This document shows, piece by piece, positions 1-48,325 of a stretch of 64,000 bases of DNA. Made by a program: the position numbers and the translations under genes. The DNA comes from Candidatus Heimdallarchaeum aukensis (GTDB taxonomy: Archaea; Asgardarchaeota; Heimdallarchaeia; Heimdallarchaeales; Heimdallarchaeaceae): the NCBI GenBank assembly GCA_021513695.1, contig CP084166.1, forward strand, positions 1,120,001 through 1,184,000, read 5' to 3'. Below the pieces are notes generated by a model, which ran no database searches, was not told where the DNA came from, and saw nothing but the letters and a program-made list of their open reading frames with translations. Each line of letters begins with the position of its first letter. Positions within the stretch are counted from its first letter, which is position 1.

Positions 1-559
1 TAAACGTAGGGCAAAGTTACAGTCAATCTATGACAAGCAAGGATTAACCACCTGGGGAAGAAAAATGTTTCAACTCCAGTTAGAACGAATGTGTAAAATC
101 ACCAACTATTTCCATAAAGCAAGTAGAAAAATAGTAGACTATTGTTCAGAAAAAAACATTGATACGATAGTTATAGGTTACAACCCCCGATGGAAACAAG
201 AAGTGATTATGGGTAAAAAGAATAATCAAACCTTTGTTTTTATACCCTTCAAATCGCTAATTGACAAAATCACTTACAAAGCAGAAGAAAAAGGAATAAA
301 AGTTCTTCCTACCGAAGAGTCCTACACCTCTGTCTACAGTTTCTTGGATAATGAAGAGATAGCTTTCCACCTCCATTATGCTGGTAAAAGAATCCATCGT
401 GGACTATTTATCAGTACCAGAGGATTAAAAATTAATGCTGATATCAACTCTGCAGGTAATATCGGTCGCAAAGTATTCCCCACGTTATTCTCTGTTATGT
501 CTAACTACGGGATAGTCTGGGGTGCAGTGGTTCACCCCGTCCGTTGGAAAATAAGTTAG
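1..559 (+). CDS. tnpB: TnpB (IS200/IS605 OrfB family) C-terminal fragment, truncated by window start; copy of 9850..10728
   Basis: Nucleotide and protein near-identity to 10171..10728. RuvC-II E (TEESYTS) and RuvC-III D (ADINSAGNIGRK) motifs are present. The reading frame continues upstream of position 1. Confidence 0.8.
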   Translation, partial: KRRAKLQSIYDKQGLTTWGRKMFQLQLERMCKITNYFHKASRKIVDYCSEKNIDTIVIGYNPRWKQEVIMGKKNNQTFVFIPFKSLIDKITYKAEEKGIKVLPTEESYTSVYSFLDNEEIAFHLHYAGKRIHRGLFISTRGLKINADINSAGNIGRKVFPTLFSVMSNYGIVWGAVVHPVRWKIS

Positions 560-682
560 TTAGTTGAGTTAGTTAGTCCAGCTCTTACGCTGTTCTTTCT
601 TTCTCTTTATTTTTCGACCGACTAAACTTACTCTTTCTTCCGATTTTTAATCAAAATCGGAATTTGGGAAAAGGTAAACCAT
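1..682 (+). mobile_element. Right part of IS1341-like (solo tnpB) element, copy 1; right end at ~682
   Basis: Homology with copy 2 extends ~120 nt past the tnpB stop and ends at ...GGTAAACCAT (682) in both copies. The conserved subterminal hairpin CCGATTTT-TAATC-AAAATCGG is at 640..660. Confidence 0.7.
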
Positions 683-8572: not shown

Positions 8573-9349
8573 ATGTCCCAGAAAAAAACTGAATTCCTTG
8601 AACCTGTTTTATCTAATGATTTAATAGTCACATTAAACGCTGCAATTGGTGAGCGAATGCTAATTTTAGCAGGCAGCTGTACAGCTTTTTTTGATGGAAG
8701 AATAAAGTCTACTTTAGAATTAGGAGAGAGGATATTAATAATTAAAAAAGACCTATCCATATTAATGCATGGAGTTTCAGGGGTAAAACCTTTAAATTGG
8801 CAAAAGCCAAATCAAGGGCCAATTTCATTTCTAAAAGAGAAAAATGAATTAGTTATGTACACAAAAAGGAAAAAAACAGAAGAAGAGTTATGGATTAGAT
8901 TTCGTTCTATTGATTTTGTTATTTTATGGTCAGGTAGCGATTTTTCTTCTTTAGAGATTTATGGGGATGAATCTGACCTTGTTCAATATCTCGTAAAACA
9001 TCCCTCAATAATTGAAAAGGATTTGCAAATTCTTTCTACAGAATACCCAACTGATGTAGGATTTGTTGACATTAAAGCTCTTGATAGCAAGAAAAGACTG
9101 ATTATTATTGAAGTAAAAAAACGTAACGCTACACCTTCAGATGCTTTTCAGTTAAAAAGATATAAGGACTATTTTGAAAATATCGAAAATAAAAAAATTA
9201 GAGCTATACTTGTTGCTCCTTCTTTCCCTGACAAAGTAAAAAAATATTTAGAGATAAATAACTTAGAATTTCAAGAAGTAGATTGGAAAAACATCTTTCC
9301 CACTATTTCTAGAGAAAAAAATATGAAAATTGATGATTTCTTTTTCTGA
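8573..9349 (+). CDS. nucS: endonuclease NucS/EndoMS (mismatch-specific RecB-like nuclease)
   Basis: Collinear similarity to archaeal NucS: GERILIIKKDLSILMHG, NWQKPNQG, GFVDIKALD...IIIEVKKRNA...QLKRYKDYF, AILVAPSF (RecB-like D-E-K nuclease core). Confidence 0.85.
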   Translation: MSQKKTEFLEPVLSNDLIVTLNAAIGERMLILAGSCTAFFDGRIKSTLELGERILIIKKDLSILMHGVSGVKPLNWQKPNQGPISFLKEKNELVMYTKRKKTEEELWIRFRSIDFVILWSGSDFSSLEIYGDESDLVQYLVKHPSIIEKDLQILSTEYPTDVGFVDIKALDSKKRLIIIEVKKRNATPSDAFQLKRYKDYFENIENKKIRAILVAPSFPDKVKKYLEINNLEFQEVDWKNIFPTISREKNMKIDDFFF

Positions 9350-10845
9350 AATTATGAAGTTATAGAAAAAGTTGAAAAAAGAAGAAAGAAAGGGAGAGGA
9401 AAGAAAGCGGAGGAGAGAGGAAAGGAGGGAAAATGAGGAGTTTAAATAGTGAAAAAAAGTAAAAATGAATGAATGAGAAAATGAGGAAAAAGGTGTGGCG
9501 AACTGAGGAAATATGGGGGAAAGAATCGATCACTCTAAAGCAGTTGGCACACCAGGTAAAAAACTTGTATAATCAAGCAAATTACATTATTAAGTATCAG
9601 TTAAGAAAAAGTAAATATTTCACGAGAGAGTTCGAACTGATGAATATTTTAAGGTATCACCCGACCTACACAGCACTACCTGGTCATACGGCACAACAGA
9701 CGATAAAGTTTCTATGTTTAGCGTGGAAAGGGTATTTTAGGTCTTTAGAAGAATGCAAAAAAGAACCAGAAAAGTTTAATGGTAAACCCCGTCCTCCAAA
9801 ATAGAAGAAGAAAGATGGACTTGCTATAATCTATTTTACTAACTCTCAAGTGAAAATTAAAGAAGAAAAAGAGCAAGAAAAAGAAAAATTTTTTATCTCT
9901 TTCCCTAAACGTGTAGGACTAAAGATAGTTACAAGACTGTGTCCTTCAACGAAAGTGAAGTTTGCCCGTCTTATACCTATGGGAACGAAATTTAAATTAG
10001 AGATAGTTTACGAGAAAGAGATAGAAGAACGAAAAAAACGACATGCAGAAAGAGTTCTAGCTCTTGATCTGGGAGTGAATAACCTTGTAGGCGGGTTAAC
10101 CACTATTCCTGGTGAAAAAGGTTTTCTGATAAATGGTAGACCCATTAAAGCTGTTAATCAGTGGTTTAATAAACGTAGGGCAAAATTACAGTCAATCTAT
10201 GACAAGCAAGGATTAAACACCTGGGGAAGAAAAATGCTTACTCTCCAGTTAGAACGAATGTGTAAAATAGCTGACTATTTCCATAAAGCAAGTAGGAAGA
10301 TAATAGACTACTGTTTAGAAAAAAACATTGATACGATAGTTATAGGTTACAACCCCAGATGGAAACAGAAAGTGAATATGGGAAAGAAAAATAACCAAAC
10401 CTTTGTTTTTATCCCCTTTAAATCCCTCATTGATAAAATCACTTACAAAGCAGAAGAAAAAGGGATAAAAGTTATTCCTACCGAAGAGTCCTACACCTCT
10501 GTCTGCAGTTTCTTAGATAATGAAGAGATAGCTTTTCACCCCCATTATGCTGGCAAAAGAACTCACCGTGGACTGTTCATCAGTACCAGAGGATTAAAAA
10601 TTAATGCTGATATCAACTCTGCAGGTAATATCGGTCGCAAAGTATTCCCCACGTTATTCTCTGTTATGTTTAACTACGGGATAGTCTGGGCTGCAGTGGT
10701 TCACCCCGTCCGTTGGAAAATAAGTTAGCAAGTTAAGTTAGTCCAGCTCTTATGCTGTTCTTTCTCTTTCTTTTTTTCCACCGACTAAACTTCCTCCTCC
10801 TTCCGATTTTTAATCTAAATCGGAATTTAGGAAAAAGTAAACCAT
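9350..10845 (+). mobile_element. IS200/IS605-family (IS1341-like) element carrying only tnpB; copy 2 (complete)
   Basis: TnpB N- and C-terminal regions are present. GA-rich leader at 9380..9460. The 3' ~120 nt beyond the tnpB stop are conserved with copy 1, including a subterminal hairpin at 10803..10823. Homology ends at 10845. No tnpA. The left boundary is not determinable from one copy. Confidence 0.7.
9469..10728 (+). pseudogene. tnpB: tnpB interrupted by a single in-frame TAG (9802..9804); N-part 9469..9804 and RuvC part 9850..10728 are in the same frame
   Basis: Both ORFs are in frame 1 and separated only by a TAG. The N-part has the typical TnpB helical N-terminus ending GKPRPPK. The C-part has RuvC-I D (LALDLGVNN), RuvC-II E (TEESYTS) and RuvC-III D (ADINSAGNI). 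The zinc-finger cysteines are degenerate. Confidence 0.75.
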
Positions 10846-10860
10846 GATTTTTTTTAAGAA

Positions 10861-11172
10861 TCATTCTGTTATACATTCTGCTTCAGGAATAATTATCCAA
10901 GCAATAACATATGCTATAAATAATGATGTCCCACTAGCAAAAAAAAGCAATATTGCCAGCAATCTAACCAATGAAACATCCATATTAGAATAGATCGCAA
11001 GTCCAGAACACACTCCGCCTAGTACTTTATTGTTAGCACATCTAAATAATTTATTTGATTGAGGGTAATAAGTCGAAGATGGAACGGTTTGCTCTTCTTC
11101 AAATTGGCGCCCACATTTTTGACAAAACAATGACCCCGGGGGGTTATCTGTACCACATTGTTCACAAATCAC
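10861..11172 (-). CDS. zinc-ribbon / PspC-domain membrane protein
   Basis: N-terminal CxxC...CxxC (CEQCG...CQKCG), PspC-like motif LGGVCSGLAIY...VRL, then a TM helix. Confidence 0.6.
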   Translation of the reverse strand: MICEQCGTDNPPGSLFCQKCGRQFEEEQTVPSSTYYPQSNKLFRCANNKVLGGVCSGLAIYSNMDVSLVRLLAILLFFASGTSLFIAYVIAWIIIPEAECITE

Positions 11173-27495: not shown

Positions 27496-27570
27496 TTGGT
27501 AGTCCCCAGGAGATTTGAACTCCTGCCCCCGGATCCAGAGTCCGGGATCCTTGCCACTAGACTAGGGGAC
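27496..27570 (-). tRNA. tRNA-Gln (anticodon CTG), CCA encoded
   Basis: Cloverleaf with A1:U72, 7-bp acceptor stem, anticodon stem CCGGA/TCCGG and loop CUCUGGA. T-arm AGGAG-TTCAAAT-CTCCT. 3' end GGGGACT-A-CCA. Confidence 0.9.
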
Positions 27571-27606
27571 TCTAAATTACAAGCGGTAACAAAGGATTGG
27601 AAAAGA

Positions 27607-27681
27607 TGGTAGTCCCCAGGAGATTCGAACTCCTGCCACCGGATTCAAAGTCCGGAATCCTTGCCGCTAGACTAGGGGACT
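27607..27681 (-). tRNA. tRNA-Gln (anticodon TTG), CCA encoded
   Basis: Same scaffold as the neighbour, with anticodon loop CUUUGAA, T-loop TTCGAAT and D-loop AGCGGCAA. A1:U72. Confidence 0.9.
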
Positions 27682-27751: not shown

Positions 27752-29266
27752 ATGCTTTATAAACTATTAAATTTTTTTGATTTTTTTCGACTTTTTTCTT
27801 TTTTTCTTTCTCTCATTCTTTTTCCTTATCAAAAAATAAATAAGAGTAAACTTACATTTTATATTATTATGCTTATAAAAACTGGTATTAATGAGCTTGA
27901 CCAGATGATTGATGGTGGTTTACGTACCCATTATTGTTATTCTATCAAGGGTTCTGCTGGTGCTGGTAAGACTGTTTTATCTATTTTTCTTGCTTGGGGT
28001 GCTCTCAATCAGGACATCCCTGTTGTTTTTATTAGTACTGAGATTGAACCTGATCGTATTATTCATTATTTTCACTCTTTTGGTCTTCCTGTTGAGGACT
28101 ACATTGACCGAGGGTTATTAGTCATTGATAAGATGTCTTTGAAGTCTTCTGGTGAGGAGATTATCCAGACTAACAGTTTTGATTTATCAGGTATTATTTT
28201 ACGTGTTACTAAGAAGATTGAGCGTATTCGAGCTAAGTTGGTTATTTTTGATTCTCTTTCTGCTTTTATTGCTGACTTTGAGTATAAAGACACTGCCCGT
28301 AGTAAGTATATTGATTTTATTAAGCGCATTACTAGTTTAGATACTTCTTTAATTATTACTATTGAGTGTGACCCTATTACTAGCAGTTCTCAGATTGACT
28401 ATTTAGTTGACGGTGTTATTGCTTTAAAGACCGAATTAATCAACAATCAGCTAATCAAGAAGATTTCTGTTCCTAAATTAAGAGAAGCCAAGCCTTTAGT
28501 TTATGAAAACCGTTATACTATTACTCAGAAAGGTTTTAGGATTTTCAAATCTGAGAGCGAGCCTTTGTTTACCGTTGATCGTTCTACTGGTATTAAGGTT
28601 TTGGACAATCTTTTAGGTGGAGGTATTGCTCGAGGTTCTGTTGTTTTAGTTGAGATCAATGGTGAGATTAATTATTTTCCTTTCTTCTTGACTCTTCTTT
28701 ACAATTATTTAACTCTAAACCATGGTGTTATCATTCATTCCAATGTTCAGATGAATGTTAATCGTATTTTGGAGGAGTTTGAGCGAGGTCAGTGTGACAT
28801 TTCTGACTACTTACGTGATGGTAATATTGTCTTTTTGGATAAGTACAATCGTTCTGTCACTGCTGTTGAAGCTAAAGAGATTCGTGATATGATTAACTTA
28901 GATGACATGTTAGCTATTACTGTTGAGATGATGCAGGCTTTTGGTTCTGACACTGAAGTTGTTGTTTTTGGTGATCTTACTGATGATGTTAACATTTTGA
29001 ATGAGCGTGATTTCTTAAAATTGTTTGCTCTTCAGTCTTACAACATTAAGGAGCATAATGCTATTTCCTTTTCTTTTATCAATTACAATGCTGTTGACAA
29101 AAAAATTCTCGCTCGTTTACGTACCACCTCTGATGTTATCATTCGTTTATCGCGTGAAAATTATTCTAACTACATTGAATGTTTGAAGAGCACTACTGGT
29201 GCTACATTTCTTGCTAAGAATATTGAATTTAAAAAAAGTTATCCTATGATTGAAATTGTTGAGTGA
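27752..29266 (+). CDS. KaiC-like tandem RecA-superfamily ATPase (N-domain with Walker A, degenerate C-domain); true start possibly at 27869 (MLIKTGINELDQ)
   Basis: GINELDQMIDGGL...IKGSAGAGKT (Walker A) in domain 1. Domain 2 (GIKVLDNLLGGGIARGSVVLVEINGE) lacks a P-loop. The first ~39 codons of the ORF are low-complexity and hydrophobic. Confidence 0.7.
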   Translation: MLYKLLNFFDFFRLFSFFLSLILFPYQKINKSKLTFYIIMLIKTGINELDQMIDGGLRTHYCYSIKGSAGAGKTVLSIFLAWGALNQDIPVVFISTEIEPDRIIHYFHSFGLPVEDYIDRGLLVIDKMSLKSSGEEIIQTNSFDLSGIILRVTKKIERIRAKLVIFDSLSAFIADFEYKDTARSKYIDFIKRITSLDTSLIITIECDPITSSSQIDYLVDGVIALKTELINNQLIKKISVPKLREAKPLVYENRYTITQKGFRIFKSESEPLFTVDRSTGIKVLDNLLGGGIARGSVVLVEINGEINYFPFFLTLLYNYLTLNHGVIIHSNVQMNVNRILEEFERGQCDISDYLRDGNIVFLDKYNRSVTAVEAKEIRDMINLDDMLAITVEMMQAFGSDTEVVVFGDLTDDVNILNERDFLKLFALQSYNIKEHNAISFSFINYNAVDKKILARLRTTSDVIIRLSRENYSNYIECLKSTTGATFLAKNIEFKKSYPMIEIVE

Positions 29267-29275
29267 GGAAGTATT

Positions 29276-29524
29276 ATGCACAAGATTTTATACTTCAAGA
29301 GCAAAACTTGTAACTGGTGTCCTTTTGTCGAATCGATTTTAAAGAAGATTGTTTCTGAAAAATCTACTTTAGAGTTAGAAGTTATTGATATTGAAGAAAA
29401 TTATGAAATCGCTGAAAAGTATAATATTATCGCTGTTCCTACTATTATTCTTCCTAACTCTACTAAAATTGTTGGTGCTACCGATGAAACTTTTCTACGC
29501 CAGCAGTTATCATTTTTTTTGTGA
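29276..29524 (+). CDS. thioredoxin/glutaredoxin-like small redox protein (CNWC active site)
   Basis: 82 aa with a CxxC (CNWCP) at the start of helix 1 and a cis-Pro-like AVPT motif. Confidence 0.6.
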   Translation: MHKILYFKSKTCNWCPFVESILKKIVSEKSTLELEVIDIEENYEIAEKYNIIAVPTIILPNSTKIVGATDETFLRQQLSFFL

Positions 29525-29641
29525 TTGGTGAGAACTGCTTTCTTTTTGTTCTTTTTTTTGGTAAATTGTTTTTTTCGTTCTTTAATTCTACTTTCATCTC
29601 TATAAGAAAACTCTTTAAATTCTTTTCTTTTTTGTAAATTA

Positions 29642-32266
29642 ATGACTTGGTCCTTAAATGATTCAAAGCTTATCTATGGTGTTGATCAAAACGATCTTTA
29701 TTTTTTAGATATTAATGATCAAGGTGAACTTTTACTTAAGCTTAAGGATCAATCTATTTCTTTTAATGAAATCATCAATCTTGTTAAGTCTCAGTTTAAC
29801 TCTTCTTCTCTCTCTTCTGTTCCTTCATTTACTCTTCGCATTCCTCAATTAATAACTGAACAAATTTCCAAACTTAACACTTGTTTCCAGTCTGCTATTC
29901 ATCAATATCAATATTCTGGCAATTTTCAAGGCATCTATCCTATTAAAGTTAATTCTTTGAGTTATGTTCTTGAAACTATTAAAGCGAACAGTCCTTCCTA
30001 TGCTTTTGAAGCTGGAACTGTTAATGAATTAGATGTTTTGCTTTCTCTTCTTCGTGATGATAAAACTCGTATGATAATGTGTAACGGTGTTAAAGATTCA
30101 GACTATATAGATAAGATTAGAGGAGCTCTTAACGATGGTTATTCTATTGTTATTAGTTTGGAGTCATGCTCTGAGTCTACTACCATTCTTGATTTAATAG
30201 ACCATGATTTACTTAAACTTGCTTTGAGAATCAAACCCTATCCCACTGTTAAATCTCATTGGGGAAGTTCTTCTGGTCGCGATTCTAAATTTGGTTTATC
30301 TATTCATGAATTTAAGCGCATTATTAATTTGTTAGAAAAAAGAGGAGTAAAGGATAAAGTTATTGCTATTCACGCTCATCCTGGTTCTCAGATTATTGAT
30401 ATTGATGGTTTAAGGTTCTTTGTTCTGTATCTTTCAAACAGGTATTTAGAACTTAAGCGTCTTGGTTTCACCAACCTTAACAATATAGACTTTGGTGGAG
30501 GTATACCTATTAATTATGATAATAGGTTACCCTCTGACATTTTAGATAATTATGTTAAAACGCTTGTATTAACTCTAAAAGAGACTATCACCGATTCTGA
30601 CGTTCAACCTAATATTTGGATTGAAGCAGGAAGGTTTCTTACTGCTCCCTCTTCCTTAATTATTGTTGAAACTATTGCTCTTTACTCTATTTTCCCCTCT
30701 GAAGAGAGTTTAAATGACCATAAGGCTATGATTAGCTCAATGCTTGAAAAAATCACTCATCCTTCTTCGATACTTAATTTATTTTCTCATTGGACTGAAT
30801 TACAATCTCCTACAATCGACTCAAATGTTAACGAAATCTTGAAGACTGAAATTTTGATGAAACACTTAAAATTAGCTATCAGAGAAAAAATGATGAATTT
30901 TGATGATGAGCAAAAGTTCAACAGGATTTTTGATTTAGATTTGGATGAGATATTCTATGAGATTTATTCCCCTGAACATATCTTAATCGGTAATTTCAGT
31001 GTTTTCAATACTATTATTGATTGGTTACTTGTTGGTCAATATTTTCCTATTCTTCCTATAGACAATCTTGATCATCAACCTGTTTCTTTAGCTAGATTGG
31101 TGGATAAAACATGTGATTCTGATGGTGAGATATCTATTTACCATCCTGTCTTTAATGAAGAAAAGATTTTGTATACCAAGGATGGTTTTCCATTAACAGT
31201 CAAAGACAAGAAATTTAATCTCATGGGCTTTCCTATTGGTTGTTTGCCTACTAATTTCCCATATTATTTAGTTATTGCTTTAACAGGTGCCTACCAAGAT
31301 AACATTAAGATGCATCACAATCTAATTGAGCCATTAAGTAGTATTATTATCAAGCATGAGAATGGGCAGTGGACTATTACTAGCAGTTCTCAGATTGACT
31401 ATTTAGTTGACGGTGTTATTGCTTTAAAGACCGAATTAATCAACAATCAGCTAATCAAGAAGATTTCTGTTCCTAAATTAAGAGAAGCCAAGCCTTTAGT
31501 TTATGAAAACCGTTATACTATTACTCAGAAAGGTTTTAGGATTTTCAAATCTGAGAGCGAGCCTTTGTTTACCGTTGATCGTTCTACTGGTATTAAGGTT
31601 TTGGACAATCTTTTAGGTGGAGGTATTGCTCGAGGTTCTGTTGTTTTAGTTGAGATCAATGGTGAGATTAATTATTTTCCTTTCTTCTTGACTCTTCTTT
31701 ACAATTATTTAACTCTAAACCATGGTGTTATCATTCATTCCAATGTTCAGATGAATGTTAATCGTATTTTGGAGGAGTTTGAGCGAGGTCAGTGTGACAT
31801 TTCTGACTACTTACGTGATGGTAATATTGTCTTTTTGGATAAGTACAATCGTTCTGTCACTGCTGTTGAAGCTAAAGAGATTCGTGATATGATTAACTTA
31901 GATGACATGTTAGCTATTACTGTTGAGATGATGCAGGCTTTTGGTTCTGACACTGAAGTTGTTGTTTTTGGTGATCTTACTGATGATGTTAACATTTTGA
32001 ATGAGCGTGATTTCTTAAAATTGTTTGCTCTTCAGTCTTACAACATTAAGGAGCATAATGCTATTTCCTTTTCTTTTATCAATTACAATGCTGTTGACAA
32101 AAAAATTCTCGCTCGTTTACGTACCACCTCTGATGTTATCATTCGTTTATCGCGTGAAAATTATTCTAACTACATTGAATGTTTGAAGAGCACTACTGGT
32201 GCTACATTTCTTGCTAAGAATATTGAATTTAAAAAAAGTTATCCTATGATTGAAATTGTTGAGTGA
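29642..32266 (+). CDS. chimeric ORF: biosynthetic arginine decarboxylase (SpeA-like) residues 1..~579 fused in frame to the C-terminal half of the KaiC-like ATPase; a product of the tandem duplication
   Basis: The N-part is identical to 32644..34375 (SpeA). The C-part is identical to 28374..29266 (KaiC-like C-domain). The junction is at 31373/31374. Confidence 0.6.
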   Translation: MTWSLNDSKLIYGVDQNDLYFLDINDQGELLLKLKDQSISFNEIINLVKSQFNSSSLSSVPSFTLRIPQLITEQISKLNTCFQSAIHQYQYSGNFQGIYPIKVNSLSYVLETIKANSPSYAFEAGTVNELDVLLSLLRDDKTRMIMCNGVKDSDYIDKIRGALNDGYSIVISLESCSESTTILDLIDHDLLKLALRIKPYPTVKSHWGSSSGRDSKFGLSIHEFKRIINLLEKRGVKDKVIAIHAHPGSQIIDIDGLRFFVLYLSNRYLELKRLGFTNLNNIDFGGGIPINYDNRLPSDILDNYVKTLVLTLKETITDSDVQPNIWIEAGRFLTAPSSLIIVETIALYSIFPSEESLNDHKAMISSMLEKITHPSSILNLFSHWTELQSPTIDSNVNEILKTEILMKHLKLAIREKMMNFDDEQKFNRIFDLDLDEIFYEIYSPEHILIGNFSVFNTIIDWLLVGQYFPILPIDNLDHQPVSLARLVDKTCDSDGEISIYHPVFNEEKILYTKDGFPLTVKDKKFNLMGFPIGCLPTNFPYYLVIALTGAYQDNIKMHHNLIEPLSSIIIKHENGQWTITSSSQIDYLVDGVIALKTELINNQLIKKISVPKLREAKPLVYENRYTITQKGFRIFKSESEPLFTVDRSTGIKVLDNLLGGGIARGSVVLVEINGEINYFPFFLTLLYNYLTLNHGVIIHSNVQMNVNRILEEFERGQCDISDYLRDGNIVFLDKYNRSVTAVEAKEIRDMINLDDMLAITVEMMQAFGSDTEVVVFGDLTDDVNILNERDFLKLFALQSYNIKEHNAISFSFINYNAVDKKILARLRTTSDVIIRLSRENYSNYIECLKSTTGATFLAKNIEFKKSYPMIEIVE

Positions 32267-32275
32267 GGAAGTATT

Positions 32276-32524
32276 ATGCACAAGATTTTATACTTCAAGA
32301 GCAAAACTTGTAACTGGTGTCCTTTTGTCGAATCGATTTTAAAGAAGATTGTTTCTGAAAAATCTACTTTAGAGTTAGAAGTTATTGATATTGAAGAAAA
32401 TTATGAAATCGCTGAAAAGTATAATATTATCGCTGTTCCTACTATTATTCTTCCTAACTCTACTAAAATTGTTGGTGCTACCGATGAAACTTTTCTACGC
32501 CAGCAGTTATCATTTTTTTTGTGA
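32276..32524 (+). CDS. thioredoxin-like protein, duplicate copy
   Basis: Identical to 29276..29524. Confidence 0.6.
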   Translation: MHKILYFKSKTCNWCPFVESILKKIVSEKSTLELEVIDIEENYEIAEKYNIIAVPTIILPNSTKIVGATDETFLRQQLSFFL

Positions 32525-32643
32525 TTGGTGAGAACTGCTTTCTTTTTTTTGTTCTTTTTTTGGTAAATTGTTTTTTTCGTTCTTTAATTCTACTTTCATC
32601 TCTATAAGAAAACTCTTTAAATTCTTTTCTTTTTTGTAAATTA

Positions 32644-34401
32644 ATGACTTGGTCCTTAAATGATTCAAAGCTTATCTATGGTGTTGATCAAAACGATCTT
32701 TATTTTTTAGATATTAATGATCAAGGTGAACTTTTACTTAAGCTTAAGGATCAATCTATTTCTTTTAATGAAATCATCAATCTTGTTAAGTCTCAGTTTA
32801 ACTCTTCTTCTCTCTCTTCTGTTCCTTCATTTACTCTTCGCATTCCTCAATTAATAACTGAACAAATTTCCAAACTTAACACTTGTTTCCAGTCTGCTAT
32901 TCATCAATATCAATATTCTGGCAATTTTCAAGGCATCTATCCTATTAAAGTTAATTCTTTGAGTTATGTTCTTGAAACTATTAAAGCGAACAGTCCTTCC
33001 TATGCTTTTGAAGCTGGAACTGTTAATGAATTAGATGTTTTGCTTTCTCTTCTTCGTGATGATAAAACTCGTATGATAATGTGTAACGGTGTTAAAGATT
33101 CAGACTATATAGATAAGATTAGAGGAGCTCTTAACGATGGTTATTCTATTGTTATTAGTTTGGAGTCATGCTCTGAGTCTACTACCATTCTTGATTTAAT
33201 AGACCATGATTTACTTAAACTTGCTTTGAGAATCAAACCCTATCCCACTGTTAAATCTCATTGGGGAAGTTCTTCTGGTCGCGATTCTAAATTTGGTTTA
33301 TCTATTCATGAATTTAAGCGCATTATTAATTTGTTAGAAAAAAGAGGAGTAAAGGATAAAGTTATTGCTATTCACGCTCATCCTGGTTCTCAGATTATTG
33401 ATATTGATGGTTTAAGGTTCTTTGTTCTGTATCTTTCAAACAGGTATTTAGAACTTAAGCGTCTTGGTTTCACCAACCTTAACAATATAGACTTTGGTGG
33501 AGGTATACCTATTAATTATGATAATAGGTTACCCTCTGACATTTTAGATAATTATGTTAAAACGCTTGTATTAACTCTAAAAGAGACTATCACCGATTCT
33601 GACGTTCAACCTAATATTTGGATTGAAGCAGGAAGGTTTCTTACTGCTCCCTCTTCCTTAATTATTGTTGAAACTATTGCTCTTTACTCTATTTTCCCCT
33701 CTGAAGAGAGTTTAAATGACCATAAGGCTATGATTAGCTCAATGCTTGAAAAAATCACTCATCCTTCTTCGATACTTAATTTATTTTCTCATTGGACTGA
33801 ATTACAATCTCCTACAATCGACTCAAATGTTAACGAAATCTTGAAGACTGAAATTTTGATGAAACACTTAAAATTAGCTATCAGAGAAAAAATGATGAAT
33901 TTTGATGATGAGCAAAAGTTCAACAGGATTTTTGATTTAGATTTGGATGAGATATTCTATGAGATTTATTCCCCTGAACATATCTTAATCGGTAATTTCA
34001 GTGTTTTCAATACTATTATTGATTGGTTACTTGTTGGTCAATATTTTCCTATTCTTCCTATAGACAATCTTGATCATCAACCTGTTTCTTTAGCTAGATT
34101 GGTGGATAAAACATGTGATTCTGATGGTGAGATATCTATTTACCATCCTGTCTTTAATGAAGAAAAGATTTTGTATACCAAGGATGGTTTTCCATTAACA
34201 GTCAAAGACAAGAAATTTAATCTCATGGGCTTTCCTATTGGTTGTTTGCCTACTAATTTCCCATATTATTTAGTTATTGCTTTAACAGGTGCCTACCAAG
34301 ATAACATTAAGATGCATCACAATCTAATTGAGCCATTAAGTAGTATTATTATCAAGCATGAGAATGGGCAGTGGAATGTTTTATATTATAGAGATAAATA
34401 A
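32644..34401 (+). CDS. speA: biosynthetic arginine decarboxylase (SpeA; PLP-dependent fold-III decarboxylase)
   Basis: YPIKVN, HAHPGSQI and DFGGG motifs characteristic of SpeA. About 585 aa. Confidence 0.8.
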   Translation: MTWSLNDSKLIYGVDQNDLYFLDINDQGELLLKLKDQSISFNEIINLVKSQFNSSSLSSVPSFTLRIPQLITEQISKLNTCFQSAIHQYQYSGNFQGIYPIKVNSLSYVLETIKANSPSYAFEAGTVNELDVLLSLLRDDKTRMIMCNGVKDSDYIDKIRGALNDGYSIVISLESCSESTTILDLIDHDLLKLALRIKPYPTVKSHWGSSSGRDSKFGLSIHEFKRIINLLEKRGVKDKVIAIHAHPGSQIIDIDGLRFFVLYLSNRYLELKRLGFTNLNNIDFGGGIPINYDNRLPSDILDNYVKTLVLTLKETITDSDVQPNIWIEAGRFLTAPSSLIIVETIALYSIFPSEESLNDHKAMISSMLEKITHPSSILNLFSHWTELQSPTIDSNVNEILKTEILMKHLKLAIREKMMNFDDEQKFNRIFDLDLDEIFYEIYSPEHILIGNFSVFNTIIDWLLVGQYFPILPIDNLDHQPVSLARLVDKTCDSDGEISIYHPVFNEEKILYTKDGFPLTVKDKKFNLMGFPIGCLPTNFPYYLVIALTGAYQDNIKMHHNLIEPLSSIIIKHENGQWNVLYYRDK

Positions 34402-46460: not shown

Positions 46461-48325
46461 GATTTACTTTTTTACGTAAAGTTTTTCACACTCTGTCTTG
46501 CAAGAGAGAAAACTAAAGGAAGTTTAATCTCTTGAACTCAACCAAGCCATACAATGCCATGAAGGGGTTGAGACAGACATCATACACGAATCGTGGGAAT
46601 CATAAAGAAGAATAGAAAGTTTTTCTTTCTTTTCTTCACTCCACGAGAGACAAAAAAGAAAGAAAGAAAGAAAGAATTACTCCTATAATAGAGAAGGAGT
46701 TACTTTCCTTTTTGTCTACTGGGACTGCAACCAATGGCTGAGCCCTCGGCAAACAGTGAAATGGGAAGAACTGAACCTTTGACCAGTGAGGTAATCAGTG
46801 ATAGTTGTTCCTCGAGGACGAAAAAGAGCACCAAGGAACTTACGAGCGATATTCATTGCCCCTGTGAGGTCAGAGTGGAAAGTGTAGTTACAGGAAGAAC
46901 AATGAACTAAACCTCTAACGGGACGGATAACTTTTCTCCCACAACGAGCACAGTAAGAAGATGTCCCTCTTTCTCCTATTGTTAATATTCGGTGAGGTTC
47001 AAAACCTCGAAGTATCAATGCTCGACGAAGAAGAGCAAGAACAAGAGAAAAGTTCCACTGATGAAGTTTCCTGCGAAACTTACGAGTACTTTTACCTTTT
47101 CCTTTCTCCTCGCGAACATGTTTAGGGTAACCTACAACGACGAAAAGGTCATACATTCGCGCATAGGTCTCTATCGTCTGCACAACCTCACTTATAAATT
47201 GGTGAATATATGCTCGTTTAACGTTTCTATATCTTCTTCGGAGGAGACTAAGAAAACGATAAACTTGATGTTTTTTACCCGACTGGTCATTTAAAGCTGC
47301 TTTCCTCTGAAGACGGGAAAGTTTGAGTTTATATCTATGATTGACTCTATTCCACTGTTTGGTATACCAAAATTTTATCTCTTTACTTGTTAATTTCTTT
47401 TTAGGGGTTAGTAACACTCCTGTAGCAGGAATGTTTATACCTAGATCTATTCCCAGCACAGCTGGGGGAAGAGAAGAAGAACTTTTTTCTTTAGTAGGAT
47501 AAAAAGAAGGAGGAGGAAGAACTCTTAGTTGGAAATACACCCACCATTCAAGTGTAGAACGTTTATATCTTAGTTCTAAACTTTTTATTCGTCCTTTCTT
47601 TAATTCCTTCTGGTGGAAAGTGCTCATCTCTAAAGGTAACCATAGTTTCTGATGATAAGGTGTGTTTCTTTTCCATGTATCTAACGAGTCTCTTATCCCC
47701 ACCCACCAACGAGTGAGAGTGTTATTCTTCTCTTTAGGTAGATGGACGAGAACGAACCTCTTTGCATTAATTAGTTGTCTTCTTGCTCTCTTTATGGGTG
47801 GACGAGTATTATTAGGTCTATACCCTTGTTCATATAACTGTACGGCTATATCTCTACACTCTTGAAATTCGTTGTGGGAACAATAAGGGAACATTTTCTT
47901 CAGATCGTGAGGGACATTCTTTCTTCTCTCTTCTTCTTTAACTTTGGAAGTAGTTAGCGTCAGTTCATCTAGTTTTCCTCTATGCACTCTTATTTTCCCT
48001 TTTTTAGTTTTAGTACATATTTTTCTTCTGTTATGATGTATAATTCTCACATATTTTTCTATTATCCTCGTATCTCTTCCCGTTATTCTCCTTAACCTTT
48101 CCTTCTTCCTCGTCGTCAATACCTCCTTCTTTATTCTCACTTTCAAGGTTTTGACGACGTCCTCCACCATCTTTCTCTTTTCTCCTTCTTTCCTCTTTTT
48201 TTGTTTCTTCTTCTCTTTTTTTTATTATACTTTTTTCCCTATAAAAACCCCTCTCCTTCCTCTCCTCTCTTCTCTTTTTTTTTTATTTTGCTGTCAACAA
48301 CTGTAAACTACGTAAAAAATAGACG
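46461..48325 (-). mobile_element. IS200/IS605-family (IS1341-like, solo tnpB) element inserted into phzF-like gene; no target duplication
   Basis: The original target reconstructs as GGACATG|CAACCC. The element is bounded by ATTTACTTTTTTACGTAAAG... at the left and ...AACTACGTAAAAAATAGACG at the right (short imperfect inverted ends around ACGT). Subterminal hairpins are at 46540..46568 (CTCAACC...GGTTGAG) and 46495..46506 (CTCTTGCAAGAG). Confidence 0.75.
46716..48170 (-). CDS. tnpB: TnpB (RNA-guided RuvC-like nuclease, IS605 OrfB family), second unrelated family with intact zinc finger
   Basis: RuvC-I LGIDLGINIPATG, zinc finger CARCGRKV...CSSCNYTFHSD, RuvC-III DLTGAMNIARK. 484 aa. Confidence 0.8.
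   Translation of the reverse strand: MVEDVVKTLKVRIKKEVLTTRKKERLRRITGRDTRIIEKYVRIIHHNRRKICTKTKKGKIRVHRGKLDELTLTTSKVKEEERRKNVPHDLKKMFPYCSHNEFQECRDIAVQLYEQGYRPNNTRPPIKRARRQLINAKRFVLVHLPKEKNNTLTRWWVGIRDSLDTWKRNTPYHQKLWLPLEMSTFHQKELKKGRIKSLELRYKRSTLEWWVYFQLRVLPPPSFYPTKEKSSSSLPPAVLGIDLGINIPATGVLLTPKKKLTSKEIKFWYTKQWNRVNHRYKLKLSRLQRKAALNDQSGKKHQVYRFLSLLRRRYRNVKRAYIHQFISEVVQTIETYARMYDLFVVVGYPKHVREEKGKGKSTRKFRRKLHQWNFSLVLALLRRALILRGFEPHRILTIGERGTSSYCARCGRKVIRPVRGLVHCSSCNYTFHSDLTGAMNIARKFLGALFRPRGTTITDYLTGQRFSSSHFTVCRGLSHWLQSQ

Follow-up and report, generated by a model that had tools for sequence, protein, structure and literature searches.

The stretch of DNA analysed here, referred to below as the window, comprises 64,000 nucleotides (nt) of contig CP084166.1 from Candidatus (Ca.) Heimdallarchaeum aukensis; for this genome see Wu et al. 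2022 (PMC8813620). Positions 9335..10845 of the window are a 1,511-bp insertion sequence, hereafter copy B, which has tnpB as its sole gene, contains no transposase gene and is non-autonomous. It is an ordinary, decaying TnpB insertion sequence of a kind that is already well known. The 3' part of a second element, copy A, occupies positions 1..682.

A 1,511-bp insertion sequence with tnpB as its only gene

The flank, the left part of the element, its gene and copy A are laid out as follows.

9330..9334, + strand: left flank TTGAT, the target or candidate transposon-adjacent motif (TAM), as seen in an empty site (contigs L106/L107) that reads AAAAATTGAT joined to GATTTTTTTT; its last bases, AT, are the putative core dinucleotide
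9335..9371, + strand: left end; homology between copies begins at 9335, and the terminal motif is the reverse complement of the right end; it contains the inverted pair CTTTTTCT (9340-9347) and AGAAAAAG (9364-9371)
9372..9440, + strand: spacer rich in purines and variable in length, which separates the left end from the promoter region and diverges more than any other part of the element
9441..9448, + strand: candidate archaeal TATA box TTTAAATA, about 20 nt 5' of the first ATG
9469..10728, + strand: 419-codon tnpB pseudogene that retains the RuvC D/E/D residues but has no C4 zinc finger (Pfam, NCBIfam and the model of a sibling)
9802..9804, + strand: in-frame TAG that arose by nonsense mutation from TAT, a codon for a conserved Tyr (other copies and homologues have Tyr)
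1..682, + strand: copy A, a second element of which the window edge leaves only the 3' 682 nt, with a hairpin at 638-662, the right end at 682 and a predicted guide at 683-702

Both ends of copy B could be fixed to the base because an uninterrupted orthologous site is known. On contigs L106 and L107 nucS is followed directly by a PspC-domain gene, and the site reads AAAAATTGAT joined to GATTTTTTTTAAT, with ...TTGAT meeting GATTTTTT... at the junction. This is the window up to 9334 fused to the window from 10846, with nothing gained or lost, and the element therefore spans 9335..10845 without a target duplication longer than 2 bp. The same boundaries recur at five independent insertion sites, namely those of the two window copies and of L001 (Ca. 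H. endolithica CP084167.1), L097 and L015, where the starts align to 9335 and the ends to 10845. L014 and L016 share the insertion site of L001, and L098 that of L015; these close copies outside the window are at least 86% identical to the element at the nucleotide level. No repeat longer than AT was found at the junctions of any copy. The left flank was TTGAT at three of four independent insertion sites and AGGAT at the remaining one, and TTGAT is the likely TAM. The left end carries GGTTTACTTTTTCC, and ACCGACTAAACTTNCTCNTNCTTCCGATTTT would serve as a pattern by which further copies could be recognised.

The element inserted exactly on the 3' side of TTGAT, where five codons of nucS (8573-9349) were still to come, and rewrote the tail of that gene from the ancestral ...KIDDFF* to ...KIDDFFF*, positions 9335-9349 being supplied by the left end. 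NucS was otherwise unchanged and became one residue longer; the orthologue P0122 (88% identity), which is encoded on contigs L106 and L107, ends in ...KIDDFF, the window protein, 100% identical to a NucS of Ca. H. aukensis, in ...KIDDFFF. Downstream of the left end, the spacer showed a pairwise divergence of 0.20 (Jukes-Cantor (JC) 0.23), with indels among copies, and GGTTTAAATA or GGTTTATATA stands at the position of the candidate TATA box both in copies of the family and in two relatives, L103 and L100. A stretch on the - strand at 48172-48283 weakly resembles (74-77%) the purine-rich sequence at 9379-9479; it is probably low-complexity GA-rich sequence and not a further left end.

A preliminary description of this locus had proposed a solo-tnpB insertion sequence present in two copies. 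The delimited 1,511-bp unit, with tnpB alone inside it, bears this out, and so does copy A, which is 91.1% identical to copy B (1..682 against 10170..10845). The proposed start near 9350 has to be moved to 9335. The right ends had been placed correctly at 682 and 10845, where both copies finish in ...GTAAACCAT before their flanks become unrelated, and with the right end so defined the guide starts proposed for the two copies (683.. and 10846..) are correct as well. The two parts of the gene (9469..9804 and 9850..10728) do lie in a single frame with one TAG between them, as had been stated.

With the stop masked, the tnpB product matched the Pfam families OrfB_IS605 (E=5e-18, 65.9 bits against a cutoff of 30.5) and Cas12f1-like_TNB (E=4.5e-9, 36.8 bits against a cutoff of 26.3), and an intact sibling, P0001, reached 160.8 bits with NCBIfam NF040570 guided_TnpB (cutoff 100). 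The AlphaFold2 model of P0001 (predicted local distance difference test score 87.4) has the WED/REC/RuvC/TNB fold of TnpB. Foldseek matched this model to AsCas12f (8j12, E=1e-16) and ISDra2 TnpB (8h1j, E=2e-9, template modelling scores 0.57/0.62), and also to ISFba1 TnpB (8iaz) and Fanzor2, with probability 1.0; the best sequence match to a solved structure was only E=4e-5.

The RuvC residues D200 (10066-10068), E340 (10486-10488) and D381 (10609-10611) are present, in agreement with the earlier claim of an intact D/E/D set; across 38 aligned homologues E340 and D381 do not vary, and D200 is shared by no fewer than 90%. The loss of the zinc-finger cysteines, also claimed earlier, was found at three of the four positions (CSFL in place of CxxC and FISTRG in place of CxxCG), but it is no sign of damage. 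The same state, with one of four cysteines retained, is found throughout the 38 relatives aligned, which come from Heimdall-, Hod-, Kari- and Promethearchaeota and from Methanophagales, and in gut-phage relatives; judged from these sequences, it is a normal trait of the clade, intact members included. Nor does it bar membership in TnpB, because according to Altae-Tran et al. 2023 (PMC10691335) some large branches of TnpB have lost their zinc fingers. The same study describes a 'derived' major TnpB clade with an NADXN RuvC-III motif, which the sequence INADINSAGN resembles, a likeness by motif. The RIIIr-4 clade of that study, also without a zinc finger, was considered and rejected: it has His at RuvC-III, where Asp381 is kept here. 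From its sequence and the modelled fold, we assign the protein to the RNA-guided RuvC nucleases, and among these to the zinc-finger-less lineage of the 'derived' NADXN type, and predict nuclease activity for its intact members. This is a TnpB branch that has neither a zinc finger nor a solved or closely related structure.

The conserved 3' tail as a candidate omega-RNA scaffold

The predicted RNA elements, which begin inside the open reading frame (ORF), are listed below; MFE denotes minimum free energy.

10676..10713, + strand: stem A, which lies within the ORF and corresponds to stem 1 of ISDra2, with the 5' pseudoknot strand GUGGUU (10696-10701) in its loop (RNAalifold)
10714..10780, + strand: helix B, a long-range helix of TGGAAAA (10714-10720) with TTTTCCA (10774-10780) (RNAalifold and single folds)
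10744-10747 and 10754-10757, + strand: small hairpin CAGC/GCTG inside helix B
10782..10790, + strand: single-stranded linker motif CGACTAAAC, between helix B and the terminal hairpin
10789..10838, + strand: extended terminal hairpin C with the core TTCCGATTT (10801-10809) and AAATCGGAA (10817-10825), the hairpin noted in the preliminary description
10840..10845, + strand: right-end terminus AACCAT, the 3' pseudoknot strand (MFE fold), whose last AT is the putative core dinucleotide
10846..10865, + strand: predicted guide segment, flanking DNA GATTTTTTTTAAGAATCATT that follows the right end and equals the sequence beside TTGAT in the empty site

Downstream of the tnpB stop codon, copy B continues for 117 nt and copy A for 123 nt. 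This tail is conserved across all copies; the preliminary description, which proposed it as an omega-RNA scaffold, had named a lack of conservation beyond the stop codon as the result that would speak against that proposal. The JC pairwise divergence of the 117-nt tail was 0.10 versus 0.23 for the 5' non-coding part, so that its rate of change is below half of that at neutral sites. Within the ORF, synonymous divergence (dS) was 0.21 in the first part and 0.38 in the middle part, compared with 0.13 over the last 50 codons and 0.085 over the last 20. Counted from the right end, constraint thus reaches back about 180-270 nt, and it includes sites that are silent for the protein.

When folded as RNA and set against shuffled sequences, positions 10726-10845 gave z=-3.7, and folds of the region ranged from z=-3.0 to -3.7. 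RNAalifold, run on six copies, and folds of single sequences gave stem A, helix B round its small hairpin, the linker and the extended terminal hairpin. In stem A two pairs are altered on both sides across Heimdall lineages (G-C/A-U and U-A/C-G). The outer pairs of hairpin C change by way of G-U intermediates, with one both-sided change from C-G to U-A. In copy A the core of this hairpin is CCGATTTT and AAAATCGG at 640-647 and 653-660, within the full stem TTCCGATTTT/AAAATCGGAA; in copy B (10803..10823) one pair is gone and seven of eight remain, exactly as first described.

Metagenome and viral scans with the protein alignment gave, among the matches listed, almost only relatives at 35-57% identity, which were of no use for a direct alignment of the tail. 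With MAFFT, the tail of L099 (64% protein identity) could not be aligned to the family; folded alone (z=-4.4), it shows the same order of elements built from different bases, including an equivalent of helix B, GTCGTTTGAAAGTA with TACTTTCTAACGAC, in which 13 of 14 positions are paired. It retains CGACTAAAC at the linker position, the rest of the tail being unalignable, and other one-mismatch matches to this motif in the loci are misplaced. An unrelated hairpin takes the position of hairpin C in L099, L100 and L103. No omega-RNA family of Rfam was matched in the whole window at gathering thresholds or in 10500-10900 at E up to 10; the output consisted of two tRNAs and chance hits.

In the 246-nt MFE fold, AACCAU (10840-10845), the hexamer with which the element ends, is paired with GUGGUU from the stem A loop. 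The omega-RNA in the solved ISDra2 complex (PMC10097598) is built in the same order: nucleotides -6 to -2, just 5' of the guide, have their partners at -102 to -106, within the stem 1 loop; stem 3 lies inside stem 2, and the pseudoknot strand comes after stem 4. Two further subfamilies, from Promethearchaeota and from gut phages, have right ends defined from independent insertions. The former pairs GGGUUA with UAACYU (6/6) at five sites, and the latter GGUA(U) with (A)UACC, in four to five pairs, at 56 of 58 loci (about 40 sites). The pairing of the terminus with the ORF loop is thus kept, with changed bases, in the Heimdall, Promethearchaeota and gut-phage subfamilies, and the ORF hexamer is the homologous one in each; in the two further subfamilies it sits just before conserved (H/Y/N)-P codons. 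For uncharacterised TnpB lineages this would give a simple comparative rule, by which an ORF hexamer just before these codons pairs with the final four to six bases of the right end, and which could help to mark the 3' boundaries of omega-RNAs.

The proposal of an omega-RNA scaffold is supported in silico both by a rate of change below that of neutral sites and by a TnpB omega-RNA architecture with a pseudoknot beside the guide. The scaffold would comprise the last 50 or so nt of the ORF together with the 117-nt tail (about 10676..10845), a well-supported prediction of roughly 170 nt.

Mobilisation of the element

The dinucleotide AT precedes the left end in four of four copies and finishes the right end in five of five. 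Just inside them, 14-16 nt of one end are repeated in inverted form at the other (left end against the reverse complement of the right end, shuffle P 0 to 0.013), and because of this inversion a joint of right end, AT and left end is a near-palindrome centred on AT. Experiments on the IS607 family (doi 10.1101/2023.11.20.567912) showed that matched core dinucleotides are required at both junctions and that the TAM contains the dinucleotide; the element studied has short inverted motifs at both ends, precise donor joints and a boundary that is ambiguous by the dinucleotide. The empty site described above likewise displays a precise donor joint and no target-site duplication longer than 2 bp.

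Transposase genes beside relatives of the element point in the same direction. An IS608 TnpA sequence (verified with Pfam) served as the probe for Y1 transposases, and serine recombinases were probed for as well. A gene encoding MerR-HTH and Resolvase domains, directly upstream, overlaps the start of tnpB at 24 of about 187 relatives' loci; these 24 include, among the loci examined, the closest relatives outside the Heimdall clade (44-46% identity). Y1_Tnp occurs at only two of the approximately 187 loci (L010 and L013, with TnpB at 29-31% identity). From these observations we infer that mobilisation by an IS607-type recombinase acting in trans is the probable route, to be favoured over a Y1 or a DDE transposase.

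It is unlikely, in comparison, that a Y1 HUH transposase mobilises the element by the 'peel and paste' of IS200/IS605 and IS1341-like elements, inserting it 3' of TTGAT and binding the tail hairpin as a subterminal hairpin through TnpA. Insertion is indeed precise, 3' of a conserved pentanucleotide and without duplication, as expected for IS200/IS605 (tetra- or pentanucleotide targets) and equally for IS607; TTGAT is both TAM and target of the Y1-type ISDra2, and a strong hairpin lies 20 nt from the right end. IS200/IS605 elements are expected, however, to have similar subterminal hairpins and no terminal inverted repeats. The candidate hairpin at the left end folds no better than shuffles (z -0.2 to -1.1), unlike the one at the right end, and was rejected as a Y1-type subterminal hairpin, while identical AT at the junctions and palindromic joined ends are foreign to IS605. 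In the lineage, moreover, Y1 genes stand only beside the two most distant relatives, whereas the closer transposase-bearing ones all have serine recombinases.

The inverted ends also bear on the function of the tail, which might be nothing but a DNA-level site for recombination or transposase binding, or a terminator, without any guide RNA. The left end mirrors the last 16 nt of the tail, so that recognition of the ends explains part of the conservation, and the hairpin region folds as DNA too (z=-3.3 against shuffles). We nevertheless regard this account as quite improbable. Constraint extends over about 180-270 nt and to synonymous sites of the ORF, whereas IS607 requires only 40-60 bp per end (doi 10.1101/2023.11.20.567912); substitutions in the outer hairpin go through G-U pairs; the pairing of the terminus with the ORF loop persists with altered bases in three subfamilies; the same helices recur in a relative whose tail cannot be aligned; and all TnpBs studied to date use such an RNA.

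Cut-and-paste transposition by a DDE enzyme, with terminal inverted repeats of about 14 bp and a 2-bp AT target-site duplication, is very improbable. It would account for inverted-repeat ends with AT on each side, the empty site fits a 0-bp and a 2-bp duplication equally well, and TnpB-only relatives from Promethearchaeota and gut phages have inverted repeats and 8-bp duplications. On the other side, TTG is kept before AT at three of four sites, which argues for a target longer than AT; none of the relatives examined is linked to a DDE gene, and the relatives with serine recombinases account for the same features. IS607-type mobilisation in trans is accordingly retained in what follows.

Decay of the gene and the proposed cycle

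The tnpB frame runs from the ATG at 9469 to the TAG at 10726-10728, and translation of 9349..10731 shows the TAG at 9802-9804 to be its sole interruption. At the aligned codon L001 has TAT, and all close and distant homologues aligned (about 40) read P-K/R-Y-K. The preliminary description had left a choice between degeneration and read-through; the TAG is ascribed to decay because every other copy has TAT, and comparison of the copies thus identifies it as a nonsense mutation and not as recoding. Decoding of the TAG, by pyrrolysine or programmed read-through, with full-length TnpB made from copy B, can scarcely be entertained: both halves do stay open in one frame and a second genomic copy is broken at the same residue, but Tyr, one base from TAG, is found in all other copies and the aligned homologues, TAG terminates 10 of the 38 long ORFs in the window, including tnpB itself, copying of a dead element accounts for the common break, and copy B carries private damaging changes.

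The other copies on record for H. aukensis, whose proteins were taken from the same 90% identity clusters, are also broken. All annotated family members of this genome are fragments (103-295 residues) that represent at least four copies, with accessions UJG40617.1/UJG40618.1, UJG41652.1, UJG42125.1 and UJG41763.1, outside or partly inside the window. P0202 (111 residues) is the N-terminal part of copy B. The product of copy A, P0207 (219 residues), begins at GVNNL; copy A is also disrupted because the region of the first RuvC aspartate falls outside its ORF. A third copy, copy C (UJG40617/UJG40618), consists of P0204 (103 residues) and P0212 (292 residues), is broken after the same ...PRPPK as copy B, and differs from it by two residues in the C-terminal part. 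The break common to both makes it probable that copying within H. aukensis involved an element that was dead beforehand; if so, copies B and C would show that a TAG-bearing dead element can spread without a nuclease of its own. In the fourth copy, P0211 (295 residues), Val replaces the first RuvC Asp. Intact siblings are P0203 (414 residues, H. endolithica) and P0216 (418 residues, metagenome-assembled genomes), and the intact H. endolithica TnpB of the family is UJG44046.1. The ratio of non-synonymous to synonymous divergence among copies was 0.13-0.21, and therefore most of the divergence arose while selection still maintained a functional protein, and the lesions are of recent date. For annotation, the split pair of 'hypothetical protein' and 'TnpB-related protein' in Ca. 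H. aukensis amounts to one dead insertion sequence.

In the cycle that we propose, the element would give rise to an omega-RNA made up, in order, of a stem-loop, a long-range helix round a small hairpin, the linker CGACUAAAC, a long terminal hairpin and a terminal AACCAU that folds back to the first loop. Transcription running on into the flank would supply the guide (10846.. in copy B and 683.. in copy A). An IS607-type serine recombinase, provided in trans, would exchange strands at the AT of both junctions; after excision, TnpB from an intact copy would cut the vacated site (TTGAT and guide), and cleavage would lead to restoration of the element by recombination. No further target consisting of TTGAT and the guide was found in the window.

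Taken as a whole, the reading of copy B as a dead, zinc-finger-less TnpB element with an omega-RNA tail and likely IS607-type mobilisation is in our judgement highly probable. Several points weigh against it. The RNA and its ends are predictions. The covariation analysis that the preliminary description had suggested for the tail yielded both-sided changes in stem A and the pseudoknot, but within the family they affect only one of 45 predicted pairs, the tail varying too little for statistics. By a shuffle test, a 6/6 match counting G-U is expected in AT-rich DNA at about 1% of positions, or 0.9-2.8 times in every 200 nt; the partners picked for the pseudoknot in L099, L100, L102 and L103 were therefore dropped as not independent, and the pairing rule comes from three subfamilies with known ends and was found after looking. 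Copy B, with its TAG and a private G-to-C change that breaks one pair of stem A, may be inert. Neither a Y1 nor a serine transposase gene was found in the element, the window or the Asgard loci. Finally, the TAM of the Y1-type ISDra2 is the same TTGAT, and descriptions of IS607 elements usually give them no terminal inverted repeats (PMC6188088).

Three known systems bear comparison. ISDra2 TnpB-omega-RNA of Deinococcus radiodurans (PDB 8H1J/8EXA; PMC10097598) shares with the present element the RuvC nuclease fold, a guide RNA (predicted here) from the 3' end of tnpB and the right end, the flanking motif, and the succession of stem 1 with a pseudoknot strand, stem 2 round stem 3, stem 4, pseudoknot and guide. 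In contrast to ISDra2, with which there was no phmmer match at E<0.01, the protein has NADXN in place of DRDXN and is devoid of a C4 zinc finger, the scaffold is predicted to measure about 170 nt versus 116 nt, the host is an archaeon, and there is no counterpart of the Y1 tnpA, dependence on a serine recombinase being suggested instead. Elements with IS607 TnpA_S and TnpB (the Clostridium botulinum IStron, doi 10.1101/2023.11.20.567912; ISFba1, PDB 8IAZ) have in common with it a matched core dinucleotide included in the TAM, inverted motifs at both ends and precise donor joints without duplication, and relatives of the element at 40-46% identity have MerR-HTH and Resolvase upstream of tnpB. 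Unlike them, it has no tnpA_S in the element or window, its core would be the palindromic AT and not GG, it contains no group I intron as the IStron does, and its terminal inverted repeat is clearer than described for IS607. With the IS1341 group (PMC10691335) it shares a single tnpB, a size of about 1.5 kb, several copies per genome and non-autonomy; that name, however, is an architectural label within IS200/IS605 which is silent on the ends, and the ends here fit IS607 better.

The element may, tentatively, be the first OMEGA system from an Asgard archaeon to be defined end to end, with a zinc-finger-less NADXN TnpB, a TTGAT TAM, a pseudoknotted omega-RNA of about 170 nt, a serine recombinase with a palindromic AT core, and a dead copy that was recopied (B and C). 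It offers a worked and cleanly delimited TnpB example from the archaeal lineage closest to eukaryotes; current understanding is not changed by these findings.

Some further observations concern relatives and other parts of the window. The tnpB-only relatives of Promethearchaeota (L002:2878-4237, L003:2882-4237, L004 and L008) and of gut-phage contigs (L057, L118 and L124) have terminal inverted repeats of 12-19 bp and, at both junctions, 8-bp direct repeats that differ from copy to copy, for example TAACAGCA, TTAATCTA, ATATTTGA, AGGAAATG and AAGACAGTG. These repeats are target-site duplications of a kind made by neither IS605 nor IS607; no transposase was identified for these elements. About 50 nt downstream of a relative with 59% identity, the raw sequence contains a tRNA-like stretch (GGGCCATTAGCTCAG...) at approximately L100:1545-1660. 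In the window, the two tRNA genes at 27500-27571 and 27610-27681 on the - strand are the sole Rfam matches at gathering thresholds. A head-to-tail 3.0-kb duplication (28374-31373 and 31374-34375; 99.87% identity over 3,003 aligned columns) spans three long + strand ORFs (27752-29266, 29642-32266 and 32644-34401), and may correspond to the repeats reported in Heimdallarchaeum genomes (PMC8813620).

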